Positions 5,981 to 62,609 of a DNA stretch of 64,000 nucleotides are shown here, one piece after another. Each line of letters opens with the position of its first letter. The stretch's first letter is position 1. Source of the DNA: Macrostomum lignano (Eukaryota); NCBI GenBank assembly GCA_002269645.1, contig NIVC01002657.1, positions 62,001 through 126,000 of the forward strand, in the 5' to 3' direction. The notes under the pieces were generated by a model. It was not told the DNA's origin. It saw only the letters and a program-made list of their open reading frames with translations, and searched no databases. The position numbers were made by a program, and so were the translations under genes.

Positions 5981-6240
5981 CATTCTGCCTTCGATTGTTG
6001 CTCGCGCGCACGCGCGCGTTTTTATCAGTTAGCTGGCTACCCCCACGCTTTCTATTTCGATACAAACGAGCTAAATATAAATGGGGGATGATCCTAGACA
6101 GCATACAGGTGACCTTGTCATCGGCCAATACAGAGCAGCGAAAACCAACCCCCATAATACAAGCCAATAGATGCGTAAAATTGATGCTAAAATTGGCGAG
6201 CATGGTATATCCCAGGGTCTCAGCTTTTTAAGGAAAAAAA
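5981..6240 (+). repeat. Dispersed repeat module B of about 260 bp, copy 1 (inverted copy at 14316-14575)
   Basis: cattctgccttcgattg...cgcgcgcgtttttatcagttag...ccaatagatgcgtaaaattgatgctaaaattgg...tttttaaggaaaaaaa matches the reverse complement of 14316-14575. Confidence 0.9.
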
Positions 6241-13394: not shown

Positions 13395-14315
13395 TAAATA
13401 CAATGTTCAAGTGTTTTCTATATAACTAAGCTAGGCCTACCAACTTTTAGATCTATATTTTCCTGGAATTTTAAAACATTCATGCATAGCACAAATATAA
13501 TAACTTGCTGAACATAACATATACAGTCCAATATCCAGTTTATATTTTTGTTCTTCACAGTGGTCTTCATCCTCATAAGGAGCCACATCTGAGAAATTGC
13601 CATTATTTATGCAAATAGAAACTTGCTAAGAAAAGATGACACATGGCGATGATGAGCTGCAAGACAGGAAAATCTTCCCATTTCACGATTGATTTAGATA
13701 GATTGTCTCGGCGCAAGCCCGTCGAGTAGTAGGCCTTACACTATTTAATTTTTTTCATACGCACGCATGATGGAGGTAAGATCGCTTCTAAAATAAGACC
13801 TGTAAACTGTCGAAATGAATATAAATTGGTCGTCATAGTACAGTCAATGTAGCAAAGAAGCTCAAAACATTTACTTGAAACAACAAGTGAACTAATGTGA
13901 AGATAATTGACGAATTCACGGCCCGGCCTGGGCCGGACCGGGCCGGGCCGCGAAATAGCAACACCCGCACTGAAGACATCAACCAACCCTACAACAAGTC
14001 CTACATCGAGATGCACCGCCAACATTAGACAAAATATGTATCAAACGCTCAAGTGAAACGCCCGCCGACAACCAATCAACACCATAGCTATCTACAAACT
14101 TGGCCTCAGCAGAATTACTCTCCAGCCACCTACAAGCCCTCGAGATTAAATTACACCAAGACCTCAAGACAGTACACACGCAACTTACCAAGACACAATG
14201 CAAAATGTATACCCTCAACTTGAGATACAGTCGCACACTACACCAATTCGACATTGGCTGCATAACAACTTTTCAATGATTGTTTCTTGTATGCTCAGTC
14301 AATTGCTGGTCACTT

Positions 14316-14575
14316 TTTTTTCCTTAAAAAGCAAAGACCCTAGGATATACCATGCTCACCAATTTTAGCATCAATTTTACGCATCTATTGGCTTGTATTT
14401 ATGGGGGTTGGTTTTCGCTGCTCTGTATTGGCCGATGACAAGGTCAGTTGTATACTGTCTAGGGTCATCCCCCGTTTATATTTAGCTCGTTTAGTATCGA
14501 AAAATAGAAAGCGTGGGGGGTAGCCCGCTAACTGATAAAAACGCGCGCGCGCAAGCATCAATCGAAGGCAGAATG
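14316..14575 (-). repeat. Dispersed repeat module B, copy 2 (inverted relative to 5981-6240)
   Basis: Reverse complement matches 5981-6240 with few mismatches. Confidence 0.9.
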
Positions 14576-18403: not shown

Positions 18404-18899
18404 ACTTGGTGGCAAAGTGGGATAAAAATACAATAATATTAAAGAGCCCTACAACAACTTGGTGGCACGGTGAGATATCATTAGAAAAGACAGGAGTTAC
18501 ACCTGCGACAATTGCTTTCACTTTCTTGAATCCTTAATTCCTTTCAGGCTCTTCAATTATTTGTAGCCACATTTCACTTTTATTTTAAGCTTTCAGCTGA
18601 AATGCCTCTGACATCATCCATGAGCAATGAGCTGCAGCTCAGGAGCATTGAGCTAAAAGCTAGGTTTCTCTAGCTAGTGAAACCAAGCTATACACTTTTA
18701 CCATCATTTTAACTACCTTAAATCCATTTGAACATTTTAAACACCCTTTGATACACTTATTTTACTCTTATTCACTTCTACTTTTGCTTTACCTTTACTT
18801 TTACTTATTTACTTTTCAATTTTCAGAGAATTCGGAGATTTGCTATGAGGCAATTTGCTATTTGCTATTTAATTGCTATTTGGATATTTGCTATTATGG

Positions 18900-19270
18900 A
18901 TACGCAGCAGCAGCGTATGGCCACCTCGGTACGGCCAGGCACCCAGCCTACAAGAACAGAGCGGAGGCGGTTAGCTTTATTCGTTTCCGCACGGGCCACT
19001 CGCTGGAGCTGAGGGCCTACTGCCGGCGGATAGGCAGAACCACCGACGCAATGTGCCCGGCGTGCGGGACCGAAGAAGAAACGGTCGAACATGTGAGCAG
19101 TCAGTGCCCGGCCACGGAGATCAGGCGAAGGCTGGACGGGCCCACGGAGCTGCACCACCTCAACGAGCACCCAGAGGAGGCGCTCCAGTACTGGAACTGG
19201 TACCGTACCAAGTGGAAGGAAAACGATGCAAACTAGGATGTTCGCGCCTCAGCGCAAACAACAACAACAA

Positions 19271-20770: not shown

Positions 20771-20857
20771 AGTCCCTCGGAGCGACCTAATCCCGACGCC
20801 GACAAGACGGAGTCGAGTGATCGACTGCGAGCCAAAGAAGCGGAGACTGCGGGAGTC

Positions 20858-22015
20858 ATGAACCCGCAGCCATGCCGCGCAGTGCTCACTGATTTTCTGA
20901 AGTTGCCGATGACGCGGCAACAGTTTGTCGACGCGCAGCGCGCCGACCGAGCTATCAGCTACGTGCTCAACTTGGTCAAGAACAAAGCCCTGAAGCCTGA
21001 GTTCGACGCCCGGTTGCGGCTGACGAAGGAGCAGCGGAATCTGCTCGGATATTACGATAATCTGCGAGAGGACAACGGCCTGCTGATGATCGATCTGACT
21101 GATGGCCAGCAGCCCCCGAAGGTTGTCCTGCCCGAAGCTCTAGATGCCCAGGTGCTCCAGGAGCTCCACAGTTCGCCACTGTGTGGACACCTCGGCCAGA
21201 CGAAGACGTTGAAGCGGCTACGTGAACGATTCTGGAGGCCCGGATTAGCCCGTGTCACCGAGAACTTTATCAGTAAGTGCCGTGCCTGTCTTGAAAGCAA
21301 ATCGCGAAGGCGAGATCGAGTGCCTGTACAGAGCTTCCCGGTGTGCGAAGTCCTGGGAAGAGTACATTGCGATGTAGTAGGCCCTATTGCCCAGAAGAGC
21401 TACATTTTGACGCTCTGCGACGCGACGTCGAAGTACCCGTTCGCCTATCCGATGAGGAACCAGAAAGCCAAGACGGTCATCAAGATCCTGCAGGAGCGCT
21501 TGATCCCTGAGTTTGATGTACCATGCTGGATACACACTGATCAAGGAACCAATTTCACTGGCTCAGCTTTCAAGAAGTTCTGCGACCTGTTTGGAATCCG
21601 GCATACGACGACAACACCGTACAATCCAGCTTCAAATGGGCAAGTCGAGAACCTCAACAAACAGCTGAAGAGTGTCCTCACCTGCCTCCTCGAGCGCAAC
21701 CATAACGACTGGGACACCTTTCTCCCAGCCTGTCTGATGGCTCTCCGCTCTAGTGTCCATCCGGTGACAGGTTTCACGCCTCACTACCTGGTGTTTGGTC
21801 GAGACTTCCGACTTCCAATCGACAACGCGATCAAGAAGCTGCCGGAGTATGCCGATCTGCCTGACTATGTCAAGGACTTCCAGCGCCGCTTAGACGAAGC
21901 GACCGAACCGGCCGTACGCTCTCCATTGGGTGGCCGTCCGCGTTGCCCGGTTTCTGGGCGGCGGCGAAGAGGACCTGCCAGCGATCCTGGCGGCCCCGCG
22001 TATGAGCTACTTTGA
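20858..22015 (+). CDS. Gypsy/Ginger1-type retroviral-like integrase (H2C2 zinc finger plus rve DDE core), C-terminus apparently truncated
   Basis: HSSPLCGHLGQTKTLKRLRERFWRPGL..CRAC (H2C2); RVHCDVVGPI, IHTDQGTNF and PYNPASNGQVENLN (D,D35E); DWDTFLPACLMALRSSVHPVTGFTPHYLVFGR. Similarity ends near 21905, with no GPY/F or chromodomain visible. Confidence 0.93.
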   Translation: MNPQPCRAVLTDFLKLPMTRQQFVDAQRADRAISYVLNLVKNKALKPEFDARLRLTKEQRNLLGYYDNLREDNGLLMIDLTDGQQPPKVVLPEALDAQVLQELHSSPLCGHLGQTKTLKRLRERFWRPGLARVTENFISKCRACLESKSRRRDRVPVQSFPVCEVLGRVHCDVVGPIAQKSYILTLCDATSKYPFAYPMRNQKAKTVIKILQERLIPEFDVPCWIHTDQGTNFTGSAFKKFCDLFGIRHTTTTPYNPASNGQVENLNKQLKSVLTCLLERNHNDWDTFLPACLMALRSSVHPVTGFTPHYLVFGRDFRLPIDNAIKKLPEYADLPDYVKDFQRRLDEATEPAVRSPLGGRPRCPVSGRRRRGPASDPGGPAYELL

Positions 22016-22148
22016 TTAACTGACGAGCCTGCGCAAATGTTCGCCCTTGATGAGGAAGAAGTTGTACCCCCCTTTCGCGCACTCCCCCGGAGCCTCGCAT
22101 GTGAATCCCGAGTCATGACTTCCTGCTCCCTCTAGCCGCGCTAATCAA

Positions 22149-25100
22149 GTGCCGGATTTGGCCGGAGACGACTTTATGGCCGCGAAATTCGAGAGCGACA
22201 ATATGCTCAAAGCGGCCAATACTCCCCCGGTGCGTGCAGCCCGCATGACGGCTGAATTATTATTCAAGCACATTGAAAAGATTTTGCAGTCGGATGCCAC
22301 TGTATTGTCAGGAAACTTTTCTATCCGCCTGCTAAAGGCCTGGGTGCCTCGAGGTGGCTGTGCCCTCGAGAACAAACATCTAGAGGAGCGGCATGCCTTC
22401 TCCAAGCACTATGTCCGCATCACCAACTCGGACAAGAGGTGCCTGCTGCGCGCTCTTGTTGTCGCATGCGCCTACCTACAATTCGTGGCCAAGACCATCA
22501 CCAAGCAGGTGTGGCGCACGATCAAGGCCAATTCGCCCACGCAGACTAAGCTGGTGGCTGAGCTGCAAGTCGAGGCAGGCCTCTACACGGTAAGTTGTGC
22601 ACTAATTTTCCTGATAAGAATTTCGTTTCTAGTTTCTAGTATTTTCATGGATTACTAAAATAATTTTACGATAAGGAATACTAAAAGATATATTTTCTGA
22701 CAAGAATTTTTACACAGTATCGTGGAATACTAAAAGAATTTCACATAGTATCAGGGAATACTAAAAGAAATATTTTACCCCCCATACAGACTCTTCAAAC
22801 CGTCTCGCAGGCCGGTCCTTTCGGGTTGGATGCACTGCCCGAGGCGATCTGTTCTCTGAACCGGCTCCATCCAGGCCACGATTTTGGTGTACGAGTGTAC
22901 CGGGCAGAGGAGGCCAACAGGTGCATCTTCAACCTGCCTGGCACCGAGATTCTGCACCTGCACCTGGTCGAGCAGCACTTTAATGTGGTTACCAAGCTGC
23001 CTGCGTTTTTCGGCAGCCACCACTACTGCGCCAAGTGCGAGATGGCTCACGACTGCACCAACGCCGAGCACAAGTGCGCTGATGCCTGCAGTACATGCAA
23101 GACTCCGGGCTCTAACTGCAAGGCAAACCGCGCATATGTGAGATGCCATGATTGCGGGCTAAATTGTTATAATGCTCAGTGTCTAGAGAATCACAAGCGC
23201 AAGAATAAGGCGGGTAGATCGCGCTGTGATTCAGTCCACGTTTGCGGCACGTGTGGCTATCTAGAAGAACTGAAAGTAGGCCAGGCCCCTGAGCATCAGT
23301 GTGGTTACGCAGTGTCCAGTCTGCAAGCAGTACGACGAAACGGCCACCCACGAGTGCTTTGTCACCCCGCCCAAAGCCAAAGAGTCTAGCGCCCCGTATG
23401 TTTACTATGATTTCGAGACGTACGTAGACTCTGGCAAGCAGCACCGGGTACACTTGGTTACGGCTGCCACCTCCTGCGAGGCGTGTCCCAAACTCTTCCC
23501 CAGGCCCCGCTGCAGCGCGTGCGGGGGGTTACACAGCTCAGCCAATTGCATTGCGGGACGCAATCTGGCGCTGGATTTTACGAGCTGTGTCTCGCACAAT
23601 GACTGTGCTTGTGGGATGCGAGAGTTTGTATCTGTCGGGCCGCACTCTATCGATGCCTTTTACTGCTGGCTGACTAGTGTGTTCAAGCAGGGGGCAATTG
23701 CTATTGCGCACAATGGCTCTGCGTATGACGCATTCCTCCTGCTCGGCGCCCTACTTAACGGACTGGCCAAGAAGAAGCCGCAGGTGATCTTCCAGAACAG
23801 CCGCCTAATGTACATGAAGTGCGACAAGATCACGTTCAAGGACAGCCTCAACTTTATCCCTATTGGTCTGGCGCAATTCCCAAAGGCGCTTGGTTTGGGC
23901 ACCCAACTGACCAAAGGAGATTTCCCGCACGTGTTCAATCAGCCACAAACTGGGGTTACGTAGGCCCCTACTGCTCAATTGATATGTACGGCGGGAAGAA
24001 GAATAAGCAGCACGACTCCATCGCCGACTGGCTGGCCAAGCAGGAGGGTCAAGTGTTTAATTTTAATAAGGAGTACCTGGACTATTGCCTGCAGGACACG
24101 CTAATTTTGCGGGAAGGCTGTCTAAAGTATGCCCGCCTGATTAAGGACATTTGCGGACGGGACGCATTTGTCCAATCCAACACCATTGCGGGCTTGGCCA
24201 TTGCAGTATTCACCACCAAGTTTATGGAGCCCAACACTCTTGGGGTGATTTCCCGCCGGTCAGATGTACAGTCACACAAGGCGCGGTGCTGGTTGGCACA
24301 TTTGAATGCAACCGAGTTTGGCGGCCGGTTGCGGACAGCCGACTCTGGCGGCTAGGCTTTCGCCATGGGCCGTAAGGTGTATGGCTTCGACCCAGAGACC
24401 AGGACAGTGCTCCAATTTCATGGCTGTTTTTACCATGGCTGCCCAAAGTGCTTCCCCAACGGCGACGTGCTGCACCCGCTCAAGAACCAGCCAATGCGGG
24501 CGATTTGAGGAGACTGAGCGCTTCACCCGGCTGCTCTCCACTGCCTACAATGTACGTGTCATGTGGGAGCATGACTATCAGGGCGAGGGAGCGCCAGTCC
24601 AGCAGCCTATTCGCCTGGAGGAAGCCCTGTTTGGCGGTCGCACCGAGGCTTTTGTCCCGCACGCCGAGGCCACCGAGACTGTAGAGCTGCGCTATCGGGA
24701 TGTGGTAAGTTTTTTCAAAATTTCTCATGTACACACACACACACACACAGTTGACATGCGTTTGAGTTTAGCCTACTTATCCCCTAGGTGCCGCTCTACC
24801 CGACTGTCAACAAGTTTGACAAGTACCCTGTCGGGCACCCGGTTCACCACCCCGAGCCTCATCTACTGGATGAGCAGCAGCTGGCCCGGTATTTTGGTAT
24901 CGCCGAGGTGTCAATTCTGCCGCCAACCAATCTCCACATCCCGCTACTGCCCGCCAAGATTAGCAAGAAGCTGGTTTTCGGCCCCTGCCGCGTCTGCATG
25001 GAGACACAGTGCAGCAGCGAGTGTACACACACTGACGCTGAGAGAATGCTCCGCGGCACATGGTCGACCCCAGAGCTCCACAAGGCCCTGCAGTTGGGTT

Positions 25101-26176
25101 ACAAGCTGCAGTCAGTTCATGCCCTGGCCTATTGGACCGAGACTCGCACGGGCTTGTTTGCAGATTATGTAAACACTTTTTTGAAGCTCAAAGCCGAGTC
25201 TAGCGGTTCGCCGGGGATGACTGAGGACGCCAAGGCCGCCTACATGGCCAGCTTTTTCGAGCGCAAAGGCGTCGGGCTTGACAAGGTGGAAGAAAATCCC
25301 GGCCTGCGCTTTGTGGCCAAGATTTTTCTAAACTCGTAAGTTGGGGTTTTTCTACTTGCAGTGGGGGACCGTGTTTTTCTACTTACAGTAGCCAGATATA
25401 GAAAAATTTATTTTTCCCTGCAGGCTCTGGGGCAAGTTCTGCCAGCGCGACGACTTGACCTCCACAGAGATTGTGGACAGCTACGAGGCGTGGCTGCAGC
25501 GCCTGACGGACCCGTCCATCAAGGTCAAGTCGTGCGAGCCAATTGGGGAGAGCTTCATGATGCTCGAATACAAGCCCCAATTTGGTGGTGCTGGCGAGCG
25601 GGCGTTCAAGTACGCCAATGTACCGATTGGCGTTTTCACCACCTCCCACGCCCGGCTGTGACTCTACGAGGCTCTTGAGGGTCTAGGAACCCGCGTCATT
25701 TACGCCGATACCGATTCGTAAGTAATTTTTTCACTGTCTGTCTCTCTTTCTCCCAAACACTTTTTTATCCTTCTCCTCCCAGGGTTGTGTATCGGTGCTC
25801 TCTGGGCGAGTACGAGCCTCCGGGCGGTTCGAGCTTGGGGCAGTGGACTGACGAGGTACCTGCTGGCTGCCGTATGGTACAGTTCACCACGGGAGGCCCC
25901 AAACTCTACCGGTACGTCGTGGAGAAGCCCGACGGGTCGGCGTACTCGGTGCTCAAGTGTAAGGGCATCAGAGTCACCCCCGAGATTTCCGAGCGCAAGG
26001 ATAAGCTGCAGGAAATTCTGCGCCACGGCGGGACTGTACGGCTGCCCCAGGCCCAGTTCAGGCGTGACAAGGCTAGCTGTACAATCCGGACCCTCGAGAT
26101 GGACAAGACTTTCCAGCGCGTGATGACTAAGAGGGTGTATGGGGCCGCCAGCCGACCGTATGGCTTTCGGGAGTGA
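22149..26176 (+). pseudogene. polB: Polinton/Maverick-type protein-primed DNA polymerase B (pPolB2 with VSR-like insertion), 5 exons, disrupted
   Basis: join(22149..22589,22811..24704,24788..25335,25424..25717,25783..26176); alternative acceptor at 22790; 5' start uncertain. N-terminal IEKILQS..NSDKRCLLRALVVA, Cys-rich Zn region, ExoI YYDFET, ExoII AHNGSAYD, FKDSLNF..KGDFPH, ExoIII YCLQD, VSR-like FHGCFYHGCPKC..WEHD, FGGRTE, motif A YRDV|VPLYP, motif B KIFLNS|LWGKF, motif C YADTDS|V, GGPKLY, KCKGI and RPYGF. Lesions: frameshifts near 23305, 23950 and 24505; stops at 24353-55 and 25659-61. Confidence 0.93.
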
Positions 26177-26372
26177 GTGAGAGATAAGGATCTGTCTTTT
26201 TACGCCTCCCTGCCTGGGATTCCCCTGTGTCCACTTGGGATCCCTTGACTCGTGGGGATGATAATGGTTTTACGCTCGCACTGTACTTAGGGGTCCTTAC
26301 TCATTTGACACCTTTACCCTCCTGTACATTGACCCTTTTTAACCTTCAAGTGTTAAAACTCCCATTTGACAC

Positions 26373-26606
26373 CTATTCCTTCGGGGCGGTTTGTGGCCCA
26401 GCGGTCCGCCTCTTGGAGTAGAACTCCTGCAAGACGTACATGAACTTGCTGCGCTGATTAGCGTCCTGATAGCGCAATCTAAATACGTTGTCCATTTTTC
26501 TAGCCCTCTTATGGGTACAATTAGGTTGAAAGTATTTCAAGTCAATAGCGTTGTGATAATAAAAAGTCTCTACATCATAGGGCGGCAAAACCTCCCTTTT
26601 GCTCAT
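26373..26606 (-). CDS. Small hypothetical ORF (77 aa) convergent with polB
   Basis: ATG start, protein-like composition (YDVETFYYHNAIDLKYFQPNC..), no family recognised. Confidence 0.4.
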   Translation of the reverse strand: MSKREVLPPYDVETFYYHNAIDLKYFQPNCTHKRARKMDNVFRLRYQDANQRSKFMYVLQEFYSKRRTAGPQTAPKE

Positions 26607-27090
26607 CTATTTTACATAATAACGAGACTAAAGTCCCCTGGGTTTAATTGTGTTGAAAGTATATCGGGTCATTAGGCCGTGAACCTCCCTTTTGGGATTT
26701 CCCCGAACCGCTTTTGTTTAATATTTTGCGCTATGATATTTATGCACCTGCGGGTTAGCCATGCCAATATTTACTCTTTAGTCGGTGCGCCATTATTTAT
26801 GCGTCTGTTGAAATTGCACCTGGGCGTTTGCCTGCTTTAATAATCTGATTATACATGCGCGCCTGTATTATACAACTACACCTTCTGATATTTGCATGCC
26901 TTGTAAACCCGCTTTATACATTAATCCGATATGTATCGAAAGTACACTTTGTAAACCTGCTTTATACTGTGTATTTCCACCTATGTTTTATTAGTGCTTA
27001 CGGTACCTGCTTTGTCTATTTCTGTCAATATAATATGCACCTACATTGTGTGTTTTTGCTGCTCATATGCTCCAATATGTACATTTTATT

Positions 27091-27600
27091 ATGCCGAGCG
27101 CCGATATCGATACGGGTATCGATCACCTAGTGATCGGAGCGCCAGCCAATGAGAGGCGAGGGTTGACACCCACCCCACCTCCAAAATCAACACAAACGGG
27201 GTTGCTTAGTAGTGTGAATGTTCGCCATCTGTGGCAGCACGGTTCACTGGCGGCTCGTCATTTCGTTGCCTCAACGTTACAGAGCGGCAGATTTGGACCA
27301 ACGGAAATATACGAGCAATCAGTCGCCAAGTACCGTGAGAAGTCCTGCTCTTTAGCAGCGATTCGAAAATTGTATGAACGCGCTCAGGCTTCTCCAGCCC
27401 ATGTAAAAAATGATCTACGTAACTTAAATAATTCACGTCGACTACTTGAAGTTTCTATGCCAGGAGCAGCAATTAACGGCTTTATTCAAAAGACTTACGC
27501 TGCACTACTCGGTGTAATGTTGTATTGCCATGAGCAGTTTAATCTGCTGCAAAACGTTCTGCGGAATGATCGAGAAAGACTGTCCCAAAGCGTCTGCTAA
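27091..27600 (+). CDS. Hypothetical intronless protein (about 169 aa from ATG 27091), predicted mostly helical
   Basis: MPSADIDTGIDHLVIG...LLQNVLRNDRERLSQSVC*; long ORF in an AT-rich flank, no family recognised. Confidence 0.5.
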   Translation: MPSADIDTGIDHLVIGAPANERRGLTPTPPPKSTQTGLLSSVNVRHLWQHGSLAARHFVASTLQSGRFGPTEIYEQSVAKYREKSCSLAAIRKLYERAQASPAHVKNDLRNLNNSRRLLEVSMPGAAINGFIQKTYAALLGVMLYCHEQFNLLQNVLRNDRERLSQSVC

Positions 27601-54800: not shown

Positions 54801-57800
54801 TTTTCTTTCGCTGAAGTCCCTGGATAGAGCCGCACACAACGCAACGGTTGTCGCGTTCGGCCAGGTAATAAGCTTGATCGCCTCGAGGCCGTCCGCTCGG
54901 TTCGAAATTTAACCGAATGATTAGTATCGGGTCTGTGGACACCACAGTTGCCAGGCCGCGCTCCGTGTACCAATCCGCTTTGCGTCTGAAGTTCGAAGTT
55001 GTGAGGGCGATTTTAGAGGCTGTTTGGGGGCGATTTCTCAAGGTGGTGAGGGCGATTTTAGAGGCGGTTTGGGGGCGATTTCTCAAGGTTGTGAGGGCGA
55101 TTTTAGAGGCGGTTTGGGGGCGATTTCTCAAGGTGGTGAGGGCGATGTTAGAGGCTGTTTGGGGGCGATTTCTCAAGGTGGTAAGGGCGATTTTAGAGAC
55201 TGTTTGGGGGCGATTTCTCAAGGTTGTGAGGGCGATTTCTCAAGGTTGTGAGGACGATTTCTAGACCTATTGAGACCGATTTTAACACGAATTCAAGGAT
55301 AAACTGAGATCAATAACTCACTTATCCAGAGTGCACATCAATTCATCGTCTGGCGCCAACATTTGGCAATTATGATAGAGCGGATTCTGTCTGGCAAATT
55401 TTGGCAATTTTTTATTCAACTGTGTCACAGTTGGGCCGGGAAAGTCTGTTTGACGTTGCTGTTGACCAGCTGGTCCAGTCGTGTGCTTGACGTCGATAAA
55501 CTGTGTGCACAGATTCTCAACACTTTCCCCAATCAGTATGGACATTTCAACAGCCAGCATAGCGCCAGTGATAGCGTCTAGCGCAGAGTAGAGAACTTGT
55601 TGCTTAGTTAGGCAAGGCAACTCCCAGTCTGTTCGAGCGACCCACTGCAGTTTGAAATAGTCTACGCTTAACATGTGGTTGGCTAGGGGCTTCAGGCCGC
55701 GACGGTGGCAGACCAAATCTGGCGGCAGACGGTCGGCCAGGTGACGGAGGTCCACCCAGCCGGAGAGGTCGCAGCCAAGATCGAAGGCCTGCGGGGCGGT
55801 AGGGGATCAGAGGGGTGTGTGAGGCCATTGTAAGGGCTGGTGTCTGAGGCAATTACAAGGACTGGTGTCTGAGGCGATTCTAAGGTGTCTGAGGGGATTG
55901 TAAGGTGTCTGAGGCGATTGTAAGGTGTCTGAGGCGATTGTAATGTGTCTGAGACGATTGTAAGGTGTCTGAGGCGATTGTAAGGTGTCTGAGGCGATTG
56001 TAAGGTGTCTGAGGCGATTGCAAGGTGTCTGAGGGGATTGTAAGGTGTCTGAGGCGATTGTAAGGTGTCTGAGACGATTGTAAGGTGTCTGAGGCGATTG
56101 TAAGGTGTCTGAGGCGATTGTAAGGTGTCTGAGGCGATTGTAAGGTGTCTGAGGGGATTGTAAGGTGTCTGAGGCGATTGTAAGGTGTCTGAGGCGATTT
56201 TAAGGTGTCTGAGGCGATTACAAGGACTGGTGTCTGAGGCGATTCTAAGGTGTCTGAGGCGATTTTAAGGTGTCTGAGACGATTGTAAGGTGTCTGAGGG
56301 AATTGTAAGATGTCTGAGGGGATTGTAAGGTGTCTGAGGCGATTGTAAGGTGCCTGAGGGGATTTTAAGGTGTCTGAGGCGATTGTAAGGTGTCTGAGGC
56401 GATTGTAAGGTGTCTGAGGCGATTGTAAGGTGCCTGAGGGGATTGTAAGATGTCTGAGGGGATTGTAAGGTGTCTGAGGCGATTGTAAGGTGCCTGAGGG
56501 AATTGTAAGATGTCTGAGGGGATTGTAAGGTGTCTGAGGCGATTGTAAGGTGCCTGAGGGAATTGTAAGGTGCCTGAGGGGATTGTAAGGTGTCTGAGGC
56601 GATTGTAAGGGCTGGTGTCTGAGGCGATTGTAAGGTGTCTAAGGCGATTGTAAGGTGTCTGAGGGAATTGTAAGATGTCTGAGGGGATTGTAAGGTGTCT
56701 GAGGCGATTGTAAGGTGCCTGAGGGGATTTTAAGGTGTCTGAGGCGATTGTAAGGTGTCTGAGGCGATTGTAAGGTGTCTGAGGCGATTGTAAGGTGCCT
56801 GAGGGGATTGTAAGATGTCTGAGGGGATTGTAAGGTGTCTGAGGCGATTGTAAGGTGCCTGAGGGAATTGTAAGATGTCTGAGGGGATTGTAAGGTGTCT
56901 GAGGCGATTGTAAGGTGCCTGAGGGAATTGTAAGGTGCCTGAGGGGATTGTAAGGTGTCTGAGGCGATTGTAAGGGCTGGTGTCTGAGGCGATTGTAAGG
57001 TGTCTAAGGCGATTGTAAGGTGTCTGAGGGAATTGTAAGATGTCTGAGGGGATTGTAAGGTGTCTGAGAAAATAGTAAGGTGTCTGAGGAGACTGTAAGG
57101 TGCCTGAGGGGATTTTAAGGTGTCTGAGGCGATTGTAAGGTGTCTGAGGCGATTGTAAGGTGTCTGAGGCGATTGTAAGGTGCCTGAGGGAATTGTAAGA
57201 TGTCTGAGGGGATTGTAAGGTGTCTGAGAAAATAGTAAGGTGTCTGAGGAGACTGTAAGGTGCCTGAGGGATTGTAAGGTGTCTGAGGCGATTGTAAGGT
57301 GTCTGAGGCGATTGTAAGGTGCCTGAGGGAATTGTAAGATGTCTGAGGGGATTGTAAGGTGTCTTAGAAAATAGTAAGGTGTCTGAGGAGACTGTAAGGT
57401 GCCTGAGGGGATTTTAAGGTGTCTGAGGCGATTGTAAGGTGTCTGAGGCGATTGTAAGGTGTCTGAGGCGATTGTAAGGTGCCTGAGGGAATTGTAAGAT
57501 GTCTGAGGGAATTGTAAGATGTCTGAGGGGATTGTAAGGTGTCTGAGGAGACTGTAAGGTGCCTGAGGGGATTGTAAGGTGTCTGAGGCGATTGTAAGGG
57601 CTGGTGTCTGAGGCGATTGTAAGGTGTCTAAGGCGATTGTAAGGGCTGGTGTCTGAGGCGATTGTAAGGTGTCTGAGGGGATTGTAAGGTGTCTGAGGCG
57701 ATTGTAAGGTGTCTGAGACGATTGTAAGGTGTCTGAGGCGATTGTAAGGTGTCTGAGGCGATTGTAAGGTGTCTGAGGCGATTGTAAGGTGTCTGAGGGG

Positions 57801-60800
57801 ATTGTAAGGTGTCTAAGGCGATTGTAAGGTGTCTGAGGCGATTTTAAGGTGTCTGAGGCGATTACAAGGACTGGTGTCTGAGGCGATTCTAAGGTGTCTG
57901 AGGCGATTTTAAGGTGTCTGAGACGATTGTAAGGTGTCTGAGGGAATTGTAAGATGTCTGAGGGGATTGTAAGGTGTCTGAGGCGATTGTAAGGTGCCTG
58001 AGGGGATTTTAAGGTGTCTGAGGCGATTGTAAGGTGTCTGAGGCGATTGTAAGGTGTCTGAGAAAATAGTAAGGTGTCTGAGGAGACTGTAAGGTGCCTG
58101 AGGGGATTGTAAGGTGTCTGAGGCGATTGTAAGGGCTGGTGTCTGAGGCGATTGTAAGGTGTCTAAGGCGATTGTAAGGTGTCTGAGGGAATTGTAAGAT
58201 GTCTGAGGGGATTGTAAGGTGTCTGAGAAAATAGTAAGGTGTCTGAGGAGACTGTAAGGTGCCTGAGGGGATTGTAAGGTGTCTGAGGCGATTGTAAGGT
58301 GTCTGAGGCGATTGTAAGGTGTCTGAGGCGATTGTAAGGTGCCTGAGAAAATAGTAAGGTGTCTGAGGAGACTGTAAGGTGCCTGAGGGGATTGTAAGGT
58401 GTCTGAGGCGATTGTAAGGTGTCTGAGGCGATTTTAAGGTGTCTGAGACGATTGTAAGGTGTCTGAGGGAATTGTAAGATGTCTGAGGGGATTGTAAGGT
58501 GTCTGAGGCGATTGTAAGGTGCCTGAGGGGATTTTAAGGTGTCTGAGGCGATTGTAAGGTGTCTGAGGCGATTGTAAGGTGTCTGAGGCGATTGTAAGGT
58601 GCCTGAGGGGATTGTAAGATGTCTGAGGGGATTGTAAGGTGTCTGAGGCGATTGTAAGGTGCCTGAGGGAATTGTAAGATGTCTGAGGGGATTGTAAGGT
58701 GTCTGAGGCGATTGTAAGGTGCCTGAGGGAATTGTAAGATGTCTGAGGGGATTGTAAGGTGTCTGAGGCGATTGTAAGGTGCCTGAGGGAATTGTAAGGT
58801 GCCTGAGGGGATTGTAAGGTGTCTGAGGCGATTGTAAGGGCTGGTGTCTGAGGCGATTGTAAGGTGTCTAAGGCGATTGTAAGGTGTCTGAGGGAATTGT
58901 AAGATGTCTGAGGGGATTGTAAGGTGTCTGAGGCGATTGTAAGGTGCCTGAGGGAATTGTAAGGTGCCTGAGGGGATTGTAAGGTGTCTGAGGCGATTGT
59001 AAGGGCTGGTGTCTGAGGCGATTGTAAGGTGTCTAAGGCGATTGTAAGGTGTCTGAGGGAATTGTAAGATGTCTGAGGGGATTGTAAGGTGTCTGAGAAA
59101 ATAGTAAGGTGTCTGAGGAGACTGTAAGGTGCCTGAGGGGATTTTAAGGTGTCTGAGGCGATTGTAAGGTGTCTGAGGCGATTGTAAGGTGTCTGAGGCG
59201 ATTGTAAGGTGCCTGAGGGAATTGTAAGATGTCTGAGGGGATTGTAAGGTGTCTGAGAAAATAGTAAGGTGTCTGAGGAGACTGTAAGGTGCCTGAGGGG
59301 ATTGTAAGGTGTCTGAGGCGATTGTAAGGTGTCTGAGGCGATTGTAAGGTGCCTGAGGGAATTGTAAGATGTCTGAGGGGATTGTAAGGTGTCTGAGAAA
59401 ATAGTAAGGTGTCTGAGGAGACTGTAAGGTGCCTGAGGGGATTTTAAGGTGTCTGAGGCGATTGTAAGGTGTCTGAGGCGATTGTAAGGTGTCTGAGGCG
59501 ATTGTAAGGTGCCTGAGGGAATTGTAAGATGTCTGAGGGAATTGTAAGATGTCTGAGGGGATTGTAAGGTGTCTGAGGAGACTGTAAGGTGCCTGAGGGG
59601 ATTGTAAGGGCTGGTGTCTGAGGCGATTGTAAGGTGTCTGAGGGGATTGTAAGGTGTCTGAGGCGATTGTAAGGTGTCTGAGACGATTGTAAGGTGTCTG
59701 AGGCGATTGTAAGGTGTCTGAGGCGATTGTAAGGTGTCTGAGGCGATTGTAAGGTGTCTGAGGGGATTGTAAGGTGTCTGAGGCGATTGTAAGGTGTCTG
59801 AGGCGATTTTAAGGTGTCTGAGGCGATTACAAGGACTGGTGTCTGAGGCGATTCTAAGGTGTCTGAGGCGATTTTAAGGTGTCTGAGACGATTGTAAGGT
59901 GTCTGAGGGAATTGTAAGATGTCTGAGGGGATTGTAAGGTGTCTGAGGCGATTGTAAGGTGCCTGAGGGGATTTTAAGGTGTCTGAGGCGATTGTAAGGT
60001 GTCTGAGGCGATTGTAAGGTGTCTGAGAAAATAGTAAGGTGTCTGAGGAGACTGTAAGGTGCCTGAGGGGATTGTAAGGTGTCTGAGGCGATTGTAAGGG
60101 CTGGTGTCTGAGGCGATTGTAAGGTGTCTAAGGCGATTGTAAGGTGTCTGAGGGAATTGTAAGATGTCTGAGGGGATTGTAAGGTGTCTGAGAAAATAGT
60201 AAGGTGTCTGAGGAGACTGTAAGGTGCCTGAGGGGATTGTAAGGTGTCTGAGGCGATTTTAAGGTGTCTGAGGCGATTGTAAGGTGTCTGAGGCGATTGT
60301 AAGGTGCCTGAGAAAATAGTAAGGTGTCTGAGGAGACTGTAAGGTGCCTGAGGGGATTGTAAGGTGTCTGAGGCGATTGTAAGGTGTCTGAGGCGACTTT
60401 AAGGTGTCTGAGACGATTGTAAGGTGTCTGAGGGAATTGTAAGATGTCTGAGGGGATTGTAAGGTGTCTGAGGCGATTGTAAGGTGCCTGAGGGGATTTT
60501 AAGGTGTCTGAGGCGATTGTAAGGTGTCTGAGGCGATTGTAAGGTGTCTGAGGCGATTGTAAGGTGCCTGAGGGGATTGTAAGATGTCTGAGGGGATTGT
60601 AAGGTGTCTGAGGCGATTGTAAGGTGCCTGAGGGAATTGTAAGATGTCTGAGGGGATTGTAAGGTGTCTGAGAAAATAGTAAGGTGTCTGAGGAGACTGT
60701 AAGGTGCCTGAGGGGATTGTAAGGTGTCTGAGGCGATTGTAAGGGCTGGTGTCTGAGGCGATTGTAAGGTGTCTAAGGCGATTGTAAGGTGTCTGAGGGA

Positions 60801-62609
60801 ATTGTAAGATGTCTGAGGGGATTGTAAGGTGTCTGAGAAAATAGTAAGGTGTCTGAGGAGACTGTAAGGTGCCTGAGGGGATTTTAAGGTGTCTGAGGCG
60901 ATTGTAAGGTGTCTGAGGCGATTGTAAGGTGTCTGAGGCGATTGTAAGGTGCCTGAGGGAATTGTAAGATGTCTGAGGGGATTGTAAGGTGTCTGAGGGG
61001 ATTGTAAGGTGTCTGAGAAAATAGTAAGGTGTCTGAGGAGACTGTAAGGTGCCTGAGGGGATTTTAAGGTGTCTGAGGCGATTGTAAGGTGTCTGAGGCG
61101 ATTGTAAGGTGTCTGAGGCGATTGTAAGGTGCCTGAGGGAATTGTAAGATGTCTGAGGGAATTGTAAGATGTCTGAGGGGATTGTAAGGTGTCTGAGGAG
61201 ACTGTAAGGTGCCTGAGGGGATTGTAAGGTGTCTGAGGCGATTGTAAGGGCTGGTGTCTGAGGCGATTGTAAGGTGTCTAAGGCGATTGTAAGGGCTGGT
61301 GTCTGAGGCGATTGTAAGGTGTCTGAGGGAATTGTAAGGTGTCTGAGGAGACTGTAAGGTGCCTGAGGGGATTGTAAGGTGTCTGAGGCGATTGAAAGGT
61401 GTCTGAGGAGACTGTAAGGTGTCTGAGGGGATTTTAAGGTGTCTGAAGAGATTGGAAGGTGTCTGAGACGACTGAAGCGATTGAGGAGAATGCCTCACCA
61501 GCTTATTAGCATCCCCATCGATTCCAACGCCAAACTTGAACACAGTGCGATCCGCCAAGAAGGCCTCCAGCTGAGGCGGCACAACGGTGAGCCGCTGCAC
61601 CCGAATGAGCAGAGCGCGCCCGTCATCAGTGGCCAGCTGCAGCAGTGCCAGCTGACCAACTTCCCCAAATTCATTTTGCCAGCGCCATTCGCAGTCGAGG
61701 CCGCAGTAGCCTAATTGACGAGCGCGCGATTCGAACTCCGGCCAATGCTCCGCTAAGCTGGCATCGGAATCGATAATGGTAGCACAGGGAGCCGACTGAT
61801 CGGCAACTTTCTGCGGTTATTATTATTAAGCTTGATTTTATTCCATTTTTACTATAAGTAGTGCAGTTGATACAATACAAAAATTGTTTATTCAAAATTT
61901 TCTATTTTACACTTCACAGTTCTCAATGAGCTTCTTAGAAATCGATTTTTCAATTTTATGTCGCTAGCCGTACGGGCCAATTGTAATGCGTAAGCGCTGC
62001 AAATGCACTGCATATTTCTATTTGTAGATTGCATTGTCTACTTGGGGTGGAGTAGTTGAAGAATATCAATCATAAAAAACTGACGCGTTGTTTGTGTGTA
62101 TGCATATGTATGCAATGTAACTTCTCCCAGGCTACTTGCAACTCAGCGTTGAAATCAATCATAAAAATTACCTAAACAGCCAAATTTTCATGCATGTACT
62201 TCAAAACTATAAATCTTCCATCTGACACTACGAGCCAAAATTCAATTAATGGTTCTTTTTAGCGATTTGAGGATTTCAGATCCCAGCCCTCGGATTCCGC
62301 TCATTCCCTGCCTTCAAATCCATGGACAGAGCTGTGTTGTGTCATCATTTCGAGGGCGCCACCACTCATAAACCATAGTGGCCCGCAAAATCATAGAATA
62401 GCAGGTATGGATTTGAAGCGCCATCGTACCTTGTACTTGTGCTTTCGCAGCTCGACATTGCGGCTCAGCAGTGTCTCATTAGTCACCCGCTGTTGACGTT
62501 TTCGACGAAGCAGAGCGAAGCAGACAAGCAGAGTCGCAGCCGTTGCTAAGGGCACAGCTAATCTTACAGCATTGCGCAGTGTTGCGTAAGAAGCCAGCCT
62601 TTCGGACAT
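51840..62609 (-). CDS. EXD2: Exonuclease 3'-5' domain-containing protein 2 (N-terminal TM anchor, DEDDy exonuclease, HNH-like domain), 5 exons, 594 aa
   Basis: complement(join(51840..52325,54646..54985,55322..55788,61499..61810,62430..62609)) = 1785 nt, phase-consistent. TM LAVPLATAATLLVCFALL; GLDCEW, LLQLAT, KFGVGI, VDLRHL, QVLYSALDA; PLYHNCQMLAPD..RKADWY; NRCVVCG..KKIVPEEFRRHFP..SHDILLLCGRCH; WRDHFLTSMKPKYLPEGWSVEH. Confidence 0.95.
52327..54557. repeat. 17-bp minisatellite (atgatcctcactgtgac) filling EXD2 intron 4
   Basis: About 130 units with recurrent shorter variants (cagtgccatg). Confidence 0.97.
55000..55260. repeat. 45-bp minisatellite filling EXD2 intron 3
   Basis: gagggcgattttagaggcggtttgggggcgatttctcaaggttgt, about 5.5 units; translates as LRNRPQTASKIALTT. 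Confidence 0.95.
55810..61480. repeat. 20-bp minisatellite (taaggtgtctgaggcgattg), about 5.7 kb, filling EXD2 intron 2
   Basis: About 280 units with recurring variant blocks (higher-order structure). Confidence 0.97.

Follow-up and report, generated by a model that had tools for sequence, protein, structure and literature searches.

An intron-bearing polymerase element of the flatworm Macrostomum lignano, likely the replication half of a split Polinton

The window analysed here is a stretch of 64,000 nucleotides (nt) of the Macrostomum lignano genome (assembly GCA_002269645.1, contig NIVC01002657.1, positions 62,001 to 126,000 of the forward strand). From 22155 to 27213 it carries a 5'-truncated fragment of an element encoding a Polinton-type, protein-primed DNA polymerase of family B (pPolB), whose gene is split by spliceosomal introns, three of them inside the catalytic motifs A, B and C. 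We are fairly confident that this is a truncated, lesion-bearing copy of a multicopy 9-kb pPolB element with six introns, which is likely the replication half of a split Polinton. The parts of the locus are the following (a slash marks an intron).

22155..22589, + strand: remainder of pPolB exon 3, N-terminal region (homology to complete copies)
22590..22789, + strand: third of the six spliceosomal introns, 200 nt, phase 0, within a linker of low conservation (contig joints)
22790..24704, + strand: pPolB exon 4, with a Cys-rich region, exonuclease motifs I-III, a Vsr-like insert and the first half of motif A (translation; PF03175)
24705..24787, + strand: motif A intron (YRDV/V), phase 0, 83 nt (contig joints; 30/30 loci)
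24788..25335, + strand: pPolB exon 5, from the second half of motif A up to motif B (PF03175, E=1.8e-12)
25336..25423, + strand: motif B intron, phase 2 in a Ser codon, 88 nt (contig joints; 30/30 loci)
25424..25717, + strand: sixth pPolB exon, interrupted in frame by a stop at 25659 (translation)
25718..25782, + strand: motif C intron, 65 nt, splitting the Ser codon that follows DTD (phase 2; contig joints; 30/30 loci)
25783..26176, + strand: last pPolB exon, C-terminus RPYGF, then stop (translation)
26177..27213, no strand assigned: 3' non-coding sequence plus right terminal inverted repeat; TAGTAGT closes it at 27213 (matches the left repeat in complete copies)
20771..22015, + strand: fragment of an integrase of long-terminal-repeat retrotransposon type (H2C2 and rve), flanking, outside the element (Pfam)

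Homology to the other copies begins at 22155, inside exon 3, and not at 22149, where a first reading of the sequence (the sequence-only reading) had let the gene start; complete copies have two more introns upstream. The window copy lacks the left inverted repeat, the PC4-like gene and exons 1 and 2, and the sequence upstream of 22155 differs between the window and RNA-like contigs. The right end at 27213 is in register with other element termini. The hexamer GTGAAT, which follows this right end and recurs at 22101, was rejected as a target duplication, since no left terminus follows 22101. The flanking integrase fragment is absent from complete copies and is shared only by a twin locus (C382), which has the flanks of the window copy in common. 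The five or so lesions announced by the sequence-only reading are present, i.e., frameshifts near 23311, 23946 and 24506, and in-frame stops at 24353 and 25659. Exon 4 thus holds three frameshifts and one stop, and two of its pieces match PF03175. The twin shares the frameshift near 23946 and is free of the lesions at 24353, 24506 and 25659, position 23311 lying outside its coverage. The idea of slips in homopolymers does not extend to the two stops, which are substitutions. The lesions can be accounted for without assembly error, although this may still underlie those specific to the window copy. The window copy is a dead fragment.

The four introns are genuine. Their donors (22590, 24705, 25336 and 25718) all read GTAAGT, all four inserts end in YAG, and the inserts have a GC content of 0.30-0.40 against about 0.55 in the exons. 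Removing the last three restores YRDV/VPLYP, KIFLNS/LWGKF and YADTDS/VVY in frame, as had been proposed, with no gap against intronless homologues. Splicing was followed in Logan contigs of four probable RNA runs from four studies, whose RNA status is a tool's guess, and all four joints were found there. The joint 22589/22790 appears in contigs of all four runs and places the end of the first intron at 22789; the acceptor at 22810 given by the sequence-only reading, in frame and 21 nt downstream, is not among the joints listed, while the coordinates of the other three introns stand. The interval 24705-24787 is skipped in four of the four runs, and 25336-25423 and 25718-25782 in three of four each; a single 1230-nt contig covers both joints of the last two introns. 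Contigs covering the introns also occur in the probable RNA runs. The contigs mismatch the window at many positions, so the RNA derives from the family and not from the window copy. For L146, a complete copy, joints that skip five GT-AG introns (743, 71, 67, 70 and 69 nt long) appear in the probable RNA runs X10 and X2, whereas the DNA-like runs X15 and X18 show zero skipping at all five; the sixth intron is not among the rows listed in this comparison. The introns show the features of the U2 type, namely GT-AG ends, removal from RNA and absence of the joints from DNA-like runs (run kinds unrecorded). The closest UniRef proteins come from Macrostomum lignano itself, and an automated model (P0001) reads through motifs A and B as spliced; the introns therefore already stand, undescribed, in public annotation.

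The complete element is known from two families. A search of the genome with exon 5 gives 124 matches, of which 45 cover almost its full length at 92-99% and constitute family A. Its complete copies measure 8.7-9.8 kb, end in ACTACTA..TAGTAGT, are bounded by terminal inverted repeats of 0.9-1.35 kb, and carry a seven-exon pPolB gene, a divergent PC4-like open reading frame (ORF) of 165-177 amino acids (Atlas 0.88, Pfam E=0.034) and sometimes an orphan ORF of 336 amino acids. The polymerase exons match PF03175 (the DNA_pol_B_2 profile), their motifs align gap-free to 32 intronless homologues, and the polymerase profile matches the 1xhx DNA polymerase (E=1e-5), which we take to be that of phi29. 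A Cys motif in exon 3 resembles the N-terminal OTU-like domain of Alpha adintovirus PolB, for which Pfam gives no hit. Family B, at about 65% protein identity to A, measures 9.5-9.7 kb when insertion-free, with ends in ACTACGT and terminal inverted repeats of about 0.25-0.75 kb; one of its exons has 101 genome matches, 38 of them at 87-100%, and no PC4-like ORF was seen in its copies. In three B copies (L060-L061 on C2286, L066-L067 on C1945 and L063 on C3161), retroelement-like long ORFs lie just after the start of pPolB exon 1, fused in frame to the first pPolB codons in two of the three.

Six GT-AG introns were found in all 14 of the 15 family A copies that could be modelled; six of the 15 copies are open through all exons and nine are not. 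Family B has six introns at positions matching those of A, in phases 1,1,0,0,2,2, the first lying in an unalignable region. Six of seven B copies share the last four introns; for the first two, six of seven failed the anchors. The three motif introns are present at all 30 loci compared (motif A 53-121 nt, motif B 67-88 nt, motif C 65-74 nt), two acceptors being off register in the matching, and the donors are GTAAGT throughout except at the last intron, where six GTGAGT and one GCAAGT occur. The homologue of the 22590 intron varies from 138 to 320 nt in 14 complete copies, and five of the introns span 53-320 nt. The introns are mutually dissimilar (a single 13-nt match), match no Rfam family above the gathering score, and show no group I or group II match at E<=1 in the three loci searched. 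When the motif B and motif C introns are read through, Ser is followed at once by a stop, in family A as in family B. At motif A, the family B intron (L052:4711-4791) is 81 nt long, keeps the frame and lacks a stop in six of seven copies, and is 82 nt long in one, whereas the other B introns vary in length. The shared positions, together with intronless relatives, place the probable gain of the introns within this lineage, ahead of the split of A and B. No intronless Vsr-type pPolB was found in the genome, as 91 of 91 P0044 matches fall at A or B loci (34 of 494 candidates scored).

The copies also bear the marks of mobility and selection. The ratio of nonsynonymous to synonymous substitution rates (dN/dS) is 0.08-0.15 in 15 A-A pairs and 0.10-0.13 in six pairs of A with one B copy, the latter at a synonymous divergence (dS) of about 2.5. 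Perfect 6-bp target duplications flank ten of ten complete copies and 10 of 12 further polymerase copies, at unrelated sites, and an empty-site joint for one copy appears in two of four runs, which may also reflect polymorphism or a duplicated chromosome region. This is an intron-bearing, genome-resident element family, mobile and not domesticated. The copies and the contig joints thereby support one branch of the sequence-only reading, a host-spliced, self-synthesising family; two further introns, the missing integrase and capsid genes, the truncation, and the partner described below had not been part of it.

The polymerase element lacks much of what a Polinton carries. No integrase match was found inside 12 polymerase copies or in the ORF lists, nor any major or minor capsid, packaging ATPase or protease gene on the polymerase copies examined. 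Six of ten further integrase loci have ACTAC ends and no pPolB match. Five such partner elements could be delimited: they measure 10.2-10.5 kb, carry homologues of integrase, capsid-type, protease-type and ATPase genes, match none of four pPolB queries, and show a 6-bp target duplication in three of the five copies. The partner genes are single ORFs in C807. Pfam backs the integrase (rve, E=1.7e-9); the capsid call comes from Atlas (0.98 to clusters with PF21738 on 14-30% of their members), with no Pfam match, and a single-sequence fold of the putative capsid (pLDDT, the predicted local distance difference test, of 35) was not used. A genome search with Pfam Pox_A32 gave no match despite the ATPases present and is uninformative. 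An A-type partner element also encodes a Fic-domain protein (L178:3629-4405, E=6.7e-14).

In both A and B types, the terminal 18-mers of a polymerase copy and a partner copy are identical, and a 27-nt terminal block followed by TTTT is common to polymerase, partner and gene-less elements. The first 27 nt of ACTAC-ended elements looks modular, with short sub-blocks shuffled among the polymerase, partner and palindrome classes, and a motif after the terminal block is common to A polymerase elements and B-type partner elements. The gene-less elements (n=27; L108-L135, e.g., L110 and L132) have ACTAC-type ends and 6-bp duplications; they were picked as end pairs within about 11 kb, which biases their sizes. 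Eighteen of the 27 are near-perfect palindromes, at least 90% self-inverted and 6.7-9.5 kb long (15 of the 18 measure 8.1-9.5 kb), with arms mostly unlike either coding segment. They would fit fold-back by-products of linear replication. The genome also holds complete Polintons with integrase, capsid and intronless pPolB. Six ordinary Polintons with readable ends (C114, C759, C506, C10, C291 and C106) end in AGTAGT..ACTACT, and the partner integrases are about 34% identical to the C114 type. ACTAC-ended elements and ordinary Polintons are nested or closely adjoin one another at L145 (C2932), L164-L165 (C106) and L098-L099 (C271), and at L160-L161 (C2301) the integrase-capsid arm of an ordinary Polinton is doubled as a large inverted repeat, with no polymerase in the fetched stretch. 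Complementary gene content and matching ends thus point to a polymerase element and an integrase-capsid element that likely form a two-part Polinton.

The position of the introns is the other unusual trait. In the alignment with the 32 intronless homologues, the windows at the motif introns rank among the most conserved 2.4%, 0.6% and 4.5%, with one intron in each of motifs A, B and C and none at six of the other top conservation peaks; the probability of at least three of six introns in the top 4.5% is P=0.0017, at a threshold set post hoc. The best 80 of 195 metagenomic relatives are uninterrupted wherever they span the motifs (73/73 loci for A, 64/64 for B, and 63/63 for C, four of these last with a one-residue alignment gap after DTDS), and this contiguity suggests that this lineage gained the introns. 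Of 152 distant proteins, ten end at motif B within eight codons (1090-1097 of the reference), several of them with tails (such as N-R, W, C-K and V-S) that would result from GTAAGT or GTGAGT read through at different phases, and one ends likewise at motif C. In a quick tree of 38 rows, built with no named references and leaving out rows that fail the motif pattern, nine of the motif-B-ending proteins sit at several places, some as sisters of full-length ones, while A and B share a long branch of unresolved position. As a lead, these protein ends hint at repeated intron gains. Scans of viral contigs (P0041, P0113, an alignment and two intron-junction patterns) found no intron-bearing relative, the two pattern matches being unrelated DNA, and a literature search for PolB intein sites turned up none. 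The thought that the introns split GGNCC sites was dropped because the elements hold 18-32 such sites.

How the system might work can be proposed as follows. The polymerase mRNA would be made by the host spliceosome, its product would replicate whatever DNA carries ACTAC-type ends by protein priming, and the partner integrase would insert elements with these ends; packaging would be a further step. For the motif introns, we tentatively favour the view that they were acquired where nucleases directed at conserved polymerase motifs had broken the DNA: the insert would then shield the site, and its loss would be possible only if precise. Resident intronless pPolBs carry Endonuclease VII domains. 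A nearly as credible account, which we nevertheless hold at less than even chances, is random gain during a long nuclear residence, with motif introns kept since imprecise loss is lethal. The three introns outside the motifs, in a small sample, and the lack of common sequence or Rfam family among the introns speak for it; the single intron in each of A, B and C with none at the six other peaks, the accumulation of ORF ends at motif B among distant relatives, the partner genes that are single ORFs, and the finding of no conserved-site preference of spliceosomal introns in passages of PMC2814812 speak against it. The introns could also be a control device by which unspliced RNA yields no active polymerase and host splicing gates replication. 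This would suit the Ser-stop read-through of motifs B and C in both families and the intron-covering contigs of probable RNA runs, yet a stop-bearing intron anywhere would act alike, and family B has a motif A intron that keeps the frame and is mostly stop-free; we regard a control role as improbable.

Other explanations concern the element as a whole. A host gene domesticated from a viral polymerase, the second branch of the sequence-only reading, could claim the introns, the purifying selection and the transcripts, but the roughly 45 close copies, bound by terminal inverted repeats at unrelated sites with their own target duplications, the empty-site joint, the nine of 15 A copies not open throughout and the truncated window copy leave it almost no credit. 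The polymerase element could instead be a non-autonomous satellite that borrows an ordinary Polinton integrase, the polymerase-less elements being independent deletion derivatives with no mutual need. The genome does hold many complete Polintons, and deleted derivatives of ordinary ones exist (C10, 7.9 kb). This too seems improbable to us, as the delimited complete Polintons have AGTAGT in place of ACTAC ends, each of the two ACTAC classes occurs in A and B types that are matched and have terminal haplotypes in common, and the partner integrases are distant from the C114 type. A bolder version of the two-part Polinton would be a two-segment flatworm Polinton virus. The motif introns of its polymerase segment would act as inteins or group I introns do, having been acquired time and again in separate Polinton lineages, within catalytic motifs because competing nucleases cut there, and retained as immunity. 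We consider this version rather unlikely; if it holds, surveys that start from ORFs or integrase linkage would overlook the entire class.

Several points weigh against the two-part Polinton with nuclease-guided introns. The P value depends on its post hoc threshold and on six introns, of which the remaining three lie in the least conserved 10% of alignment windows. None of the 80 metagenomic relatives has an insert in motifs A, B or C, and the motif-B-ending set, known as proteins alone, may consist of frameshifts or contig ends. Neither an intein nor a homing nuclease directed at the motifs turned up, and nothing shows what the resident Endonuclease VII domains cut. The two-part system is known from genes and ends, no free linear DNA, virion or trans-complementation having been observed, and integrase families were surveyed in part, so that an intact Polinton with ACTAC ends may exist. 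As for splicing, the data are contigs of the family from runs of guessed RNA status, and the control runs X15 and X18, of unrecorded kind, were called DNA-like partly because they lack the joints.

The element works like a Polinton and falls outside strict membership on integrase, capsid, ends and intronless genes. With Polintons/Mavericks (adintoviruses, Alpha-class pfam03175 PolB; passages of PMC8502044 and PMC8097293) it shares the PF03175 pPolB and long inverted repeats, and also 6-bp target duplications, a 3-bp terminal repeat and a PC4-like gene as in the resident complete Polintons. It differs by its size of 8.7-9.8 kb with neither integrase nor virion genes, its ends (ACTAC..GTAGT in place of (AGT)2..(ACT)2, and outside the 5'-AG..CT-3' motifs of the definition in PMC8097293) and the six spliceosomal introns of its pPolB; the same source reports introns in none of 134 intact vertebrate Mavericks. 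By description, the pPolB2 with a VSR insert of marine mollusc and nematode Polintons (passages of 10.1101/2023.08.22.554363) is alike in its FHGCFYHGC-type insert in the interval between exonuclease and motif A; here the Pfam Vsr match is weak (one of eight aligned relatives, E=0.03). That survey required integrase linkage and would thus have missed this element, and its passages mention no pPolB introns. The maverick-polinton-like proviruses of dinoflagellates (passages of PMC11957031) likewise contain spliceosomal-type introns, but these introners are repeated mobile copies mostly inserted after integration, whereas the flatworm introns, which are those of an animal, are mutually unrelated, fixed in two families at saturated dS and focused on catalytic motifs.

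Inteins and group I introns also insert in the most conserved, catalytic parts of proteins (passages of PMC2814812, where spliceosomal introns show no such preference), and group I introns are described in protist Polinton-like viruses (passages of PMC12220804); by contrast, the flatworm inserts are short GT-AG introns with neither endonuclease nor Rfam match. Bidnaviruses, which are bipartite and encode a pPolB (passages of PMC8502044, which also separates Alpha and Beta PolB classes), are alike in their two segments, matching terminal sequences and Alpha-type pPolB. The flatworm pair differs in being double-stranded and integrated, with a retroviral-type integrase and a predicted double-jelly-roll capsid.

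The element is genuine, its family is expressed, and it is unusual in two respects. In the literature searched (Repbase, subscription journals and supplements lying outside its scope) we found no account of Macrostomum Polintons, of a bipartite Polinton or of a spliced pPolB in an animal Polinton. The core genes of Polintons are said to lack introns, and spliceosomal introns to have no preference for conserved sites; both rules fail here in a family that is expressed, was recently mobile and belongs to a laboratory animal, which opens intron gain in a virus-derived gene to direct study. Split halves and fold-back palindromes with the same ends would provide a natural system for questions of Polinton replication and particle formation, and elements of this kind would escape surveys that ask for long ORFs or for an integrase in linkage.

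Elsewhere in the window, an ORF at 18664-19236 has a weak zf-RVT match and is likely the tail of a non-LTR retroelement. Inverted repeat arms at 6008-6240 and 14315-14552, about 8.2 kb apart, possibly delimit another DNA transposon, and a long tandem array with a 20-nt unit and strong GC skew occupies 55700-61800.

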